Positions 10,701-60,033 of a stretch of 64,000 nt of DNA are shown in pieces. The stretch spans positions 163,122,001-163,186,000 of the forward strand of contig OZ024741.1 in the NCBI GenBank assembly GCA_964016885.1. Reading direction: 5' to 3'. Both the position numbers and the translations under genes were made by a program. Under the pieces are notes generated by a model. That model worked only from the letters and a program-made list of their open reading frames with translations, ran no database searches and was not told the origin of the DNA. Within the stretch, counting starts at the first letter, position 1, and every line of letters starts with the position of its first letter. The DNA is from Eledone cirrhosa (taxonomy: Eukaryota).

Positions 10701-11635
10701 CTGATAGCTGGCTCCTGTATATATATATATATATATATATATATATATATATATATACACACAGACACACACACATATACATATATATATATATATATAT
10801 ATATATATATATATATACACACACATATATACCATATATATATACATATATATATATATATATGTGCGTGTGTGCGTGTGTGTGTGTGTCTGCGTGTGTG
10901 TGTGTGTGTGCGCGCGCTGTTTGATGTCGACTTAACGAGTTCTTCTGAGGACAAAATATTTCTCTAATGAAGATTACTTCTTAAAGCTCGCCGAAGCAAG
11001 TGATTATGTCATTTCGATTAACTAATCGAGTAGTTACACATAAATATTTATTTCTGCTTAGCTTGATTGTTGATGAAATATATTATATGCTGAAGCCATG
11101 TTATCTCGCTTAAGCTGAATATTCCATCCCCTTGAAAATATATTCCATTCAAATTCAGTTAACACGAGATTTGTAATTGCATGCTAATATTTTTTCACTA
11201 AAGCACATTTCCACTTTAATCACTCGGAAATCTAGTAAATGCTACAACCACGATTATTATGTAATCGAACTATCACTTAAATAGTATATACAGTGATAAA
11301 TATCTTTTGAATAATCTATAATATTCGTTACATTTAAAAATAAATATTTAATGAGTTAATGATTTAAAATTAATTATATTTGTAGATTCACACCAAGCTT
11401 TGTTGAATAGGTAATGCTTAATGATCATATTGAAACAATACTTAACCCACACTCACTCAAACATACATACACACACTGGCATATATATATGTATGTATGT
11501 ATGTATATATATATATAAATATATATAATAGGGGGATTCCCGATGTATATTGGTAAAAAAAAGGGTACTCAATACGTTGGTAAAGGCATCTTTATATAAT
11601 AATAATTATAATAATAATAATAATAATAATAACAA

Positions 11636-12010
11636 TGACCGGGTGGTTTTGGACAAGGAAAAAAGATCGTGCCTGATTGTGGATGTGGCCTGCCCATTTG
11701 ACACGAGAGTGCAAGAAAAGGAGATGGAGAAAATTAACCGATACCAGGACTTAAAGTGGGAGGTAAAAAGGATTTGGAACTGCCATGAAGTCAAAGTCGT
11801 CCCGATTGTCATAGGTACTATCTCAAAGAGTTTCCAAGGATGGTTAAAGAAGATTAGTCCAGCCCCGCTTTTTGGAACACGTCAAAAGGCAGGCTTGCTG
11901 GGAACAGCAAGAACCCTCCGATACGTGCTGAATATCTGAGGCTGCAGGTAGCGGCTTGATATTCATTTCAACAAACTTTCCAGTTAAATAACATCAATGA
12001 CTGAGACTGT
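11636..12010 (+). mobile_element. 3' fragment of an R4/Dong-like non-LTR retrotransposon (restriction-like endonuclease)
   Basis: VVLDK..CLIVDVACPFD..V.EKE.EKI.RYQDL..E..RIW....VVPIVIG...QKA.LLGTA..LR.VL; flanked on both sides by (TAA)n. Confidence 0.85.
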
Positions 12011-13684
12011 AATAATAATATTAACAATAATAATTGTTACTACTTTAGGCACAAGGCTAGCAATTACCCAGTGTATTACTGGTTCTTTATTTTATCGACC
12101 CCGCAAGGATGAAAGGCAATAATAATGATGCAAGGTCGGTTTGTTATGCCTTCATTACGTTTATTGATTGGTAACGCCCTTTCGCTATTGATACGCTCAA
12201 GGTTCTATCTGTATCAATCTCGCCCGACTCTGCAATCAAAAGCCCGTCGGACATCTGGTGTTGTAATATATATATATATATAAACACACACACACACACA
12301 CACACACACATATATATATATATATATATATATATATATATATATATATATATATATATATAAAATACATATATATATAATACATATATATATATATATA
12401 TATATAATACATATATATATATATATACATATATATTTATATATATATTAGGTGTATAGTCTTTAATGCGTCGAAATACCAACGATAAATCAGAAGACTA
12501 CTGAAGAGGACATTTTAACCCTTGTCTATTTTTATTCATATATTCATGTTCGCAACAACGCAGCATGCAATCATATATATATATATATATATATATATAT
12601 ATATATATATATATATATATATACACCTCCGCCTCACTACGTACACGCTGAAATACCTATGAAACGAAAACACCACATCCCCGCATCTCACATCATCCAT
12701 CGCTCCCCACCACCACCTCGTCACTATGTCCTCCCCACCTATGACACATACCAAAACATTCCTCATAGCTAAACCACCAATGAAAACAACATAAACTGAC
12801 CACCATATGAACGGGAAACGTTACAGACATTTCGATGCATTATATCTTCGTTCTCTCATTACAACACCAGAGGTCCGACGGGCTTTTGATTCCAGGGTCA
12901 CTGTGGCTTTTTAATGGGCTTTCTCCACAAATGTCCCTCGGAAGTCTCCCCCGTATTAGGGAATTTTTCATTGTTATTTTTTGTTACATCCTCTGTTTTT
13001 GCTTTTTACACGCAGAACTGCCCATTTGTACCGTCCTGTATTGTCCTATACTGTCCTTAATGTCTACTTTATGTAAACCCTTGTGGTTAATAAATAAAGC
13101 ATTATTATTATTATTATTATTATTATTATTATTATTATTATTATTATTATTATTATATAAAGATGCATTTACCAGCGTATTGAGTACCCTTTTTTTACCA
13201 ATATACATCCCCCTATTATATATATATATATATATATATATATATATATATATATATAGTTGTTGTAGGGTTGTAGGCGGTATGCCGGTTGAGCACTCGA
13301 TGCTCGCGCAGAGCAGATTATAATATTATAAAGAACGAGGGCTCAGTATTGCATCAAATCACAATTTATTAACATATTACATATGTTTACTCCGTCGATT
13401 AGCTCTAGGCAGAGTCTGTTACAGATCGAACGCACAAGGCATATTTCAAGACCCTTCGAATGCAGAGTCGAGTTCGATCTGTAACAGATCTTACCTCGAG
13501 CTGATCGCCGGAGAAACATATGTAATATGTTAATAAACTGTGATTTGATGCAATACTGTTCCCTCGTTCTTTATAATATATATATATATATATATATACG
13601 TAGGTCCCGGGTTGAGTCGGGGATAACCACAGTAAGTAAGGTACTCAATACATGTCAGAGTAAAATTTTTTTATTTTATAGAAG

Positions 13685-13737
13685 GAGCTTCTACGGGACT
13701 AGTACTGTTTCATTCAGATGAAATCTTCAGGAAGCTC
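13685..13737 (-). ncRNA. Type I hammerhead ribozyme (family A)
   Basis: Minus strand: gagcttc CTGAAGA tttc-atct-gaat GAAA cag-tactagtc-ccg TA gaagctc; perfect 7-bp stem I, GUA cleavage triplet. Confidence 0.8.
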
Positions 13738-13875
13738 AATATATATATATATATATATATATATATATATATATATATATATATATATATATATATATAT
13801 ATATATATATATATATAAATATATATATATAAATATATATATAAAAATATATATATATATATATATATATATATA

Positions 13876-57540: not shown

Positions 57541-58412
57541 TGCTAACCTCAGTCTCCTCTGTGTCACTTTTGAGCTGACTTTTGGGAGGCTCCCATACAG
57601 CTCTCAGATTAATGTTCAGAGCCATCCTCAGCATTCTCGTGTAGCACCCATACACCATCTGAGTGAGTTTCTTGATCAGTGTCCAAGTCTCAGACCCGTA
57701 CAGCAGCACAGACTCCACTACAGCAATGAAGGGGCGGATTTTCAGGTCTTTAAGAAGGTCTGACTTCCACACCGATCTCAAGCTGTGGAAGGCCGCCCAG
57801 GCTTTGCCCTTCCTCTCAACCACATCATCTTCCGTATTCCCAATCTTTGCTCCCAAATACAGGAAGTCCTAAACCAATTCTAGCGGCTTCCCGTCTACAT
57901 TAGTAATCCCCTCTGGCTTCTCTACCAGATATTTTGTTTTAGTCTCATTCATTCTCAGCCCCACACTCATCGACACAGTCTCAACCTCCTGCATCAAATC
58001 TTCTGCCTCCTTCACTGTATTTGCCACCAAAACTATATCGTCGACAAATTCAGTATCCGATAACTTTTTCGCCTTAACTCTCCTGCTCTGAGCCGGTGCT
58101 TCAGTAAAGCCAGAGTCCTGATGTTTCTCCAGTGCAAGGCGCATACAATAGTCCACTACGATGATAAAAAGGTGGGGAGCCAATGTATCTCCCTGGAGCA
58201 CTCCAGCCAGTATCTCAAAGAACTTTGCATCCCATCAGGTGTAATAACATGGACACACTGGAAGGGGAAGACCAAGGTTAACGTATGTTGATGCCCTAAG
58301 GACAGACACTGGTCTGTTGGAGACGCAGGACATGGCAGCGATGAAGTGGGACAGAGACCGCTGGAGAGAACTCGTCCATGGATCTCGGGAATTTTACCTG
58401 CCCTAGATAGAT
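57541..58412. mobile_element. RTE-type LINE 3' fragment with 5' inversion
   Basis: Minus 57541-58248: [41 protein letters not shown]. Plus ~58248-58405: GRGRPRLTYVDALRTDTG..DRDRWRELV*, then a TAGA tail. Confidence 0.85.
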
Positions 58413-59773
58413 ATATTTATTTATTATACTTTACTTACGGGTGGACATACTGCCAATACGAATACACGCACCAAGTGAATTTCACTTCAGTTTATTATTA
58501 ACTAACTAATCCATTCTTCAGTTGGTTTCATAAGCTGGTGGTTGCTTAATTGTTAATTGTCAGGGCTCTTGCATCACACATCCTGTAATATTCTAATGAT
58601 TATACCTACTCCTCAGTGTCTTGTCTTTTTGTGGTGTGTATATTGTCTGCGCAAGAGTGTTTTTGTGTGCTGCTACATTCACAAGCTTTTTTATTCTCTC
58701 TCTCACTGTACCGATTGTGTTGTTATTTCTGTTTACCTTTTACATATATATATATATATATATATATATATATAATCAGACAGCTATTGTGTGATCATTT
58801 CAACGTGTGATATGTCCCTGGTGGGTTTTGATGTTACTCCTCCAACGCCAGGCTGACATATAGATTCAGTATAAGACTCTCTATTTAACATCACTTTGTG
58901 TGGTGCATTCATTTAAACTTGTTGGTTGAATTTTACTCATGGTTATGATCATGGCTAAACGTTGATTTAATCCTATGAAGTAGATGTTTCCGAGATAATG
59001 CGTATCGGTGTGTATGTCGGCAGTTGAAAGAATGGCCAGTAATTATAAATTTGTCATGCATACAGAAAAAGACAACAGCATTGGAAAAGACTGTAAATGC
59101 CATAAATGAGAGGAAGGGGGGGGGGGGGGGGTAAAGAGCAAGGGAAGAAGGAAAGCGCTAGGGAGAGGCTGATAGACTCTACACCTAGGTCAGAGCGATG
59201 TTTCGGCTGCGTCCCTCGGAAAACATGGCAAAGGCATTTCCACGCACAATGCCACAACACACCCGCTGCAAATGCCACAACACCTCAGAGGGGCTGCTGC
59301 AGTTCCAATTTTACGTAGGATCTGTTCGGAGTCCGAGGAAACATGAGGTTTCGAGTACTATCGGTGTAAAGTGGAAGTGGCCGGGCATGTCTCACTATTT
59401 ACTTGTCTTCTTTTCCTCTGCATTGTGGGCCGTGCTACCCGTGTTTGTGGCCGAAACGATTACGTTCGAGGCGGAAAACGTGTAACAGCTTGTCGCATCT
59501 CAGATAACAGATTAACCTCCTTCGAAGTGGATAGGTATTTGTATTTGTAAGGTTTCGCTGTTCGTGTGGGGTGGTCTGACAATAAAGCCAGGAGTAAAAC
59601 TAACACTTGTCTCAAATTATAAATGAAGTTGACTACTCTAGATAGATACAATTTAAACAGTTTGATCTTTGAACTGTTTTATATATATATATATATATAT
59701 ATATATATATATATATATATATATAGATGAGATTCTACAGGACTAGAACTGTTTCATTCATTTGAAATCATCA

Positions 59774-59826
59774 GGGATTCCTGATGATTTCAAATGAATG
59801 AAACAGTTCTAGTCCTGTAGAATCTC
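59774..59826 (+). ncRNA. Type I hammerhead ribozyme (family A)
   Basis: gggattc CTGATGA tttc-aaat-gaat GAAA cag-ttctagtc-ctg TA gaatctc; predicted cleavage after 59819; an inverted second core lies at ~59729-59775. Confidence 0.82.
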
Positions 59827-60033
59827 ATCTATATTAAAACTGTTATACTCTGCTATGTATTGAGTACCTTATTTACTGTGGTTACCTCCGATTCAACCCG
59901 GAATAACGTATATATATATATATATATATATATATATATATATATAATGAAAAATTGAACAGGGACAGAACAGAGAGGCAGTACGATAAATGTTTATTAA
60001 ATTCACGCTCAGGAGAGTGGGGGGTAGGTGGTG

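Follow-up and report, generated by a model that had tools for sequence, protein, structure and literature searches.

A duplicated bulged hairpin beside the insertion ends of Hydra-clade Penelope-like elements of Eledone cirrhosa, and its probable role in setting internal starts of reverse transcription

The 64,000-nt stretch of the Eledone cirrhosa genome analysed here (assembly GCA_964016885.1, contig OZ024741.1, positions 163,122,001 to 163,186,000; the window) contains ends of Penelope-like retroelements (PLEs) inserted in (TA)n, and a hexamer, GAGTRC, recurs close to these ends. As judged from the sequence, GAGTRC forms the 3' side of a hairpin with a bulge, RCTC-stem-loop-NN-GAGY-AC. In intact copies, this hairpin occurs two times between the hammerhead ribozyme and the start codon. 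Each hairpin probably binds the reverse transcriptase (RT) on the sense RNA and fixes one internal start, which would explain the tail found at only one end of a PLE insertion. The elements belong to a known clade and the one-sided tail is known; the hairpin is the new part. The original prediction had noted the hexamer without recognizing it as a described motif, and indeed no description of the hairpin was found in the full-text literature searched (subscription papers, Repbase notes and figures lay outside the search).

The hexamer had been listed at 15 sites and assigned to unrelated element families, here compared by their open reading frames (ORFs). The sites split over six families (A, four sites; B, one; C, two; D, five; E, two; H, one), which, where ORFs were found, are homologous at the protein level and, by their sequence features, are related Hydra-clade PLEs, family H putatively. 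Read-through copies tie families A, B, C, D and E, and a seventh family G, to Hydra-type open reading frames, which are 36–72% identical where compared. Thus, these families share a common descent although their flanks do not align. For family H, the read-through copy L373 has the second hairpin but no ORF match. It had been argued that descent of the families from one alignable element would count against a shared signal. They do descend from one clade, yet the motif is apparently kept under selection while the flanks of the families are unalignable.

The Hydra clade is diagnosed by an RT, a CxCX5C linker and a GIY-YIG endonuclease with CxxC and CxH (Craig et al., 2021; PMC8557442, available text). 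The intact family-A ORF (723 aa, locus L032) shows all of these. The single ORF, with the RT followed by the C-terminal GIY-YIG endonuclease, is complete in A (L032) and G (L374), and partial in the other families. RW[KRH] was found in families A, B, C1, C2, D, E and G, and DKT in A, B, C1, C2 and E. The linker together with CxxC/CxH around E and N is complete in A and G, and the linker is also present in B and D. Among the 26 metagenome ORFs described below, the RWK-type and DKT motifs are each present in 25, and the linker and CxxC/CxH motifs in 25–26. These elements also have a hammerhead in the pseudo-long terminal repeat (pLTR) and are inserted into (TA)n. The clade label rests on the motifs, the hammerhead and the (TA)n target, as the 33-row RT tree was built without named Hydra or outgroup references; Pfam gave no match for the Hydra ORF or the window ORF fragments. 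Site 16081 lies in a pLTR copy of family A, which is young and abundant (58,948 first-look candidates). The host genome is 3.0 Gb and TA-rich.

Metagenome contigs were scanned with a 61-protein alignment, giving 78 loci. Of these, 61 were kept and form 33 families; 17 were left out without a hammerhead call on the ORF strand, and one ORF-internal false hammerhead (L185) was dropped. In 26 of the 33 families, GCTC-stem-loop-NN-GAGC-AC lies 33–60 nt past the hammerhead cut site. Two of the remaining families fit by eye, four stop too early and one is without the hairpin. A second canonical hairpin was found in 16 of the 26 families, after a spacer of 36–47 nt (59 nt in one family with a TA run).

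Pairing was analysed in 43 hairpins from the metagenome families, with the partners chosen without scoring. As MAFFT alignment misplaces short hairpins, the pair counts were taken from scripts. The three upper pairs hold in 43/43, 31/41 and 25/32 hairpins, against shuffle means of 33.0, 18.4 and 13.4. None of 5000 shuffles reaches the observed counts, and the pairing signal is present only in the 2-nt bulge register. For the first upper pair, the RT tree requires eight or more changes between T-A and C-G, always on both sides, and five of these are forced by well-supported branches. The lower stem also changes on both sides (GCTC/GAGC, ACTC/GAGT and GTTC/GAAC), and a GCAC/GTGC form is found in 20 of 30 family-D read-through copies. 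The loop ranges from about 3 to more than 60 nt, and the one-sided bulge is fixed. Loops of 30–65 nt, with stem, bulge and end offset kept, are seen at L088:7572, L112:1845 and window positions 54426–54487 and 57215–57262. A GYA-NNGAG-TRC pentaloop and a pseudoknot were considered and rejected, as the bulged stem is the only one of these structures that accommodates family C and the metagenome set.

G-U pairs outnumber A-C pairs by 8 to 2, and this excess favours the sense strand as the acting strand. The G-U bias also bears on another reading, in which the motif would be recognized in DNA by the GIY-YIG endonuclease, which would cut the adjoining DNA copy and so set the ends. Craig et al. attribute the tail to endonuclease properties (PMC8557442, available text), and the D. 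virilis endonuclease required the tail for cleavage, as cited in PMC11167929. However, the variable loop length, the bulge fixed on one side and the covariation of the upper stem are unlike a duplex binding site, and together with the G-U bias they make the endonuclease reading quite unlikely.

Insertion ends fall beside the hairpins. Among 127 family-A matches, 43 end about 5 nt before hairpin 1 (short ends) and 63 about 3 nt before hairpin 2 (long ends); eight read through, and 13 end elsewhere or at the locus edge. The head-to-head family-A insertions combine a short and a long end in 28 of 28 cases, where about 48% is expected if the ends were independent. One long–long row was dropped, as a short partner lies closer to its plus arm, at a distance of 3 nt. 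Over 45 fold-backs in 16 groups, the short ends lie -17 to +2 nt from hairpin 1, with a median of -5 (hairpins sought within 30 nt; descriptor chance rate 0.9%). In seven references (A, B, C1, C2, G, J and Lf), most long ends are found -2 to -4 nt from hairpin 2. Depending on the family, GAGY is separated from the long end by 37 to about 100 nt. Thus, the end follows the hairpin just downstream at a fixed offset, and not the hexamer, to which the original prediction had referred it. In the metagenome set, 14 of 19 ends are within 4 nt of the hairpin start, according to the author's reading. A hairpin in a one-sided overhang was found in 46 of 133 palindromic stretches between microsatellites. 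None of ten symmetric stretches is long–long; one is short–short and belongs to a hairpin-bearing family. Hairpin 1 is preceded by an alternating TA run of at least 3 in 25 of 26 families, and hairpin 2 in 10 of 19; among background 10-mers, 33 of 99 have such a run.

The hairpin adjoining an end is never included in the copy of that end. Therefore, the signal must act on the template. Hairpin 1 survives only in long ends, and the hexamers noted earlier are hairpin 1; they lie about 50 nt before (TA)n because hairpin 1 would be carried along when copying began before hairpin 2.

Identical end positions are also predicted if the hairpins direct cleavage or termination of the RNA just 5' of themselves (3'-end formation), with ordinary priming from the two RNA 3' ends. 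The 7-bp stem followed by a 3' ACU tail is loosely reminiscent of substrates that are cut at the 5' base. In Anolis, RNA-seq read ends fall on the start sites (PMC11167929, available text). However, the ends observed here are 2–8 nt off the stem and not at the stem, cleavage does not alone yield one short and one long end per insertion, and in vitro the internal starts occurred on uncut RNA (PMC11167929). In addition, AATAAA is not enriched. The original prediction had placed an AATAAA-like tract upstream of the hexamer; such a tract was found at 8 of 11 descriptor-matched sites and at site 13182, with distances scattered from -27 to -89 and none in family A. In the metagenome families, A(A/T)TAAA is present upstream in 8 of 26, against 4.5 expected. 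The polyadenylation-signal layout, with A(A/T)TAAA at a fixed upstream distance, is thus unsupported, and RNA cleavage is an unlikely explanation. Between the two functions first suggested, 3'-end formation and recognition by the RT or endonuclease, recognition by the RT is the best reading.

The two arms of one insertion are near-identical, and in 22 of 27 cases an arm is matched best by its own partner. Such fold-backs would arise if an antisense transcript primed itself and the hairpins marked its start or stop points; self-priming has been put forward for head-to-head PLE palindromes (PMC3846280, available text). We consider this route very improbable, as only the sense strand accommodates the wobble pairs, the long arm with the ORF can be either of the two, and priming on the sense template was shown in vitro (PMC11167929). 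Equally little is expected of a core-promoter or translation element whose coincidence with the ends is due only to neighbouring UA-rich microhomology. Both hairpins are located in the 5' region, hairpin 2 lies 15–42 nt before an ATG in 15 of 16 families, and the Penelope tail region was scored as a possible basal promoter (PMC2377424, available text). Such an element does not account for an upper stem that keeps pairing and not sequence, or for ends that keep a narrow offset in an AT-rich context. The 5' junctions scatter from +4 to -1240 among the 32 read-through rows listed, which is a weak point against it.

We prefer recognition of the hairpins by the RT and propose the following steps. 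The endonuclease would cut both strands of (TA)n. Each DNA end would pair with the UA run 3–9 nt 5' of a hairpin and be extended by the RT held there. One end would start before hairpin 1, giving the short end. The other would start before hairpin 2, giving the long end, and the copied hairpin 1 and spacer would be the tail. The two cDNAs would then be joined head to head. The most tentative step is that the two RTs may be one dimer on one RNA. From the structure, duplication, end offsets and pairing rule observed, we infer the binding, the action at the RNA level, the dimer and the joining of the arms. In the short fold-backs of family A, the inversion junctions cluster within the hammerhead, where the stem II/III region is self-complementary, about 55–70 nt before hairpin 1, and this region may help to join the two cDNAs. 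More tentatively, and at somewhat less than an even chance, the arrangement could be a twin dock: a dimeric telomerase-related RT would sit on the two hairpins, spaced apart on a single RNA, and prime the two ends of a double-strand break simultaneously, with a short UA template aligning each end. Such a dock would make both the one-sided tail and the inverted ends. A 25-nt hairpin placed after any RNA would then program the start of copying.

Several results weigh against RT recognition. One metagenome family of the 33, L231, shows no hairpin although its sequence is long enough, and 5 of the 19 metagenome ends fall elsewhere. The fold-back L094:8620–9515 is the short–short one mentioned above. 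Isolated hairpins are weak (-1.1 to -6.2 kcal/mol). In context folds, the lower stem has p ≥ 0.5 in 15 of 16 cases for hairpin 1 and in 12 of 16 for hairpin 2, leaving four with p < 0.5. In family D, hairpin 2 is reduced, without bulge and upper stem; a search for the canonical form in this family gave chance or fusion matches only, and the variant form was found instead. Copying one RNA from site 2 through site 1 would require strand displacement. A non-coding hammerhead repeat also ends in (TA)n without the motif, and three further fold-backs in the window had no hairpin matching the descriptor. The supplement of PMC11167929 shows a Poseidon fragment (figure text only) without such a motif; thus, the hairpin may be clade-specific.

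The positions of the hexamer itself were also counted. A microsatellite lies 30–85 nt downstream of 14 of the 46 GAGTRC sites in the window, against a background of 7.5% (p = 4e-6, not de-replicated). In 1,352 TA flanks from 113 evenly spaced 10-kb stretches of the genome, GAGTRC has its maximum 51–60 nt before (TA)n (37 matches, against about 4 per bin). When the flanks are collapsed into 919 clusters, the enrichment of the bare hexamer is only weak (27 against 19). It therefore marks a few families and not TA flanks generally. A wider motif pattern matched 28,881 times on the forward strand, and its reversed control 94 times.

In the window, all 15 sites read GAGTRC or GAGCAC at the coordinates and on the strands first reported, 35–82 nt ahead of a microsatellite. 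A covariance model built from the metagenome hairpins only recovered 11 of the 15 sites among 17 matches at E ≤ 5, together with two hairpins overlooked earlier. By eye, the hairpin is present at 13 of the 15 sites, and the other two share a deletion of the 5' strand. A hammerhead core upstream in the same arm, as had been predicted, is present at six of the 15 sites and absent at the rest, whose arms are 5'-truncated. A conserved cis signal at the element end is thus retained, with a different nature and geometry: a paired structure with a 5' partner strand, present twice. The predicted features are as follows.

13875–16133, no strand assigned: family-A Hydra insertion in (TA)n with its arms head to head; minus arm with the short end at 13875, plus arm with the long end at 16133
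15123–15536, minus strand: GIY-YIG endonuclease end of the family-A ORF, CxxC..E..N..CxH
15472–15888, plus strand: 5'-truncated RT fragment of family A, opposite arm
15947–16040, plus strand: type I hammerhead, U3:A8 core variant, predicted cut after 16035
16061–16086, plus strand: hairpin 1, family A
22474–22499, minus strand: hairpin 1, family A, bulge GT, inside fold-back 22427–22643
47717–47742, minus strand: hairpin 1, family A
48449–48474, minus strand: hairpin 1, family A, inside fold-back 48402–48592
35182–35204, plus strand: hairpin 1, family B, GCTC/GAGC form
36044–36066, plus strand: hairpin 1, B-like copy with one mismatch, overlooked earlier
33205–33226, plus strand: hairpin 1, family C, inside fold-back 32983–33287
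47411–47432, minus strand: hairpin 1, family C, inside fold-back 47348–47657
59847–59867, plus strand: hairpin 1, family D, fold-back 59725–59909, hammerhead core from 59781
13641–13661, minus strand: hairpin 1, family D, hammerhead core 13708–13730
23219–23248, plus strand: hairpin 1, family D branch, longer loop
11565–11570, minus strand: 3' strand of hairpin 1, family D sub-branch, 5' strand gone by a short deletion
13182–13187, plus strand: 3' strand of hairpin 1, family D sub-branch, same deletion as 11565
13293–13314, minus strand: hairpin 1, family E, inside fold-back 13258–13577
21946–21967, minus strand: hairpin 1, family E, inside fold-back 21901–22297
54426–54487, plus strand: hairpin 1, family H, long loop, hammerhead core 54312–54353, read by eye
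57215–57262, minus strand: hairpin 1, family G, long loop, overlooked earlier

The two family-D sub-branch ends with the common deletion (11517–13217) face outward, each abutting (ATT)n beside pieces of a long interspersed element (LINE), and this region is probably a local inverted duplication. The LINE pieces are presumably of the restriction-like endonuclease type, according to their motifs. The U3:A8 hammerhead core variant of family A has been reported from Schistosoma PLEs (PMC4209133, available text). Rfam gave no match at E ≤ 10 in L032:2250–2570, where the U3:A8 hammerhead of family A was missed as well, so that its sensitivity is limited. The whole-window Rfam scan gave microsatellite-driven microRNA noise among the matches listed.

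The elements share with the Hydra clade of Craig et al. (2021; PMC8557442, available text) the protein motifs, the pLTR hammerhead, the (TA)n target, the inverted 5'-truncated arm and the tail at one end. The tail is about 55–100 nt here and 30–40 nt there, and the available text credits the endonuclease and mentions no hairpin. Among the six published new Hydra consensi, inspected by eye, the hairpin is clear in Hydra-2_Amil, Hydra-1_Ajap (twice) and Hydra-2_Ajap, and a variant is present in Hydra-1_Crog; it was not seen in Hydra-1_Amil and Hydra-1_Obim. For the Poseidon element PAc of Anolis, two internal RT starts bounding the tail were found in vitro; RNA 3' of the starts was needed, both DNA strands were extended, uncut RNA was used and a dimer was predicted (Frangieh et al., 2024; PMC11167929, available text). 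These findings fit RT recognition of two downstream hairpins. The PAc start is within one AC-rich stem-loop without target homology, and no repeated downstream hairpin is named in the available text, whereas the Hydra elements have a UA run matching their own target.

Cis-acting stems recognized by RTs are known from the 3' stem-loop of L2 and short interspersed elements, hepadnavirus epsilon, the tRNA-like end of retroplasmids and telomerase RNA. In these systems a small structured RNA near the template start recruits and positions the RT, in telomerase with a short primer-alignment sequence. Unlike these stems, the hairpin described here is present in two copies 3' of two internal starts, it is not copied by the start that it would set, and the two would serve both ends of one break. 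Non-LTR retrozymes (bioRxiv 10.64898/2026.07.22.740005, available text) likewise have short hammerhead-bearing pLTR-like units. In contrast to these, the fold-backs of the window come from coding families, as truncated copies of their ends; ORFs were found in families A, B, C, D, E and G but not in H. The true non-coding tandem repeat examined here is without the hairpin. This repeat (L088:4380–4640, L343–L372) is about 480 nt long and carries hammerheads; it contains a (TA)n, ends preferentially at several positions and has the word GTACGGC more than once, and no ORF of its own was found in 30 loci.

Fold-backs in microsatellites without a descriptor hairpin are located in the window at 19214–19845, 31950–32681 and 54895–55652; the first two have hammerhead cores and a one-sided tail, and the third is symmetric. 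One hammerhead family (L039:3472–4440, L385, L386) seemingly has three end positions, with a canonical hairpin after only one. Family-A units repeat head to tail about every 3,540 nt in an array at about 91.476–91.487 Mb of another contig, C1 (L276–L279), and L164 (minus strand) is a separate array of hammerhead units of about 310 nt. Pieces of other non-LTR retrotransposon ORFs are found in the window at 45152–45556, 52842–53423 and 57467–58234. The 623-codon open frame at 4093–5964 (minus strand) consists of 15-residue repeats, each with a KR-flanked FD(S/T)LGG(A/G)FMPG-G peptide, and has no Pfam match; by its repeat pattern it is a neuropeptide precursor exon. We take the repeat peptide to resemble molluscan FCAP.

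How PLEs choose their start site, and why one end carries an extra tail, has been a long-standing question since the tail was described. A clade-wide covarying signal of 20–25 nt beside both kinds of end makes this question experimentally tractable in the existing in vitro system. It bears on how the closest mobile relatives of telomerase set their template boundary. In addition, the true ends of tens of thousands of genomic copies can be placed by a rule based on the hairpin, which could also be used as a compact tag to direct RT-based insertion to (TA)n.

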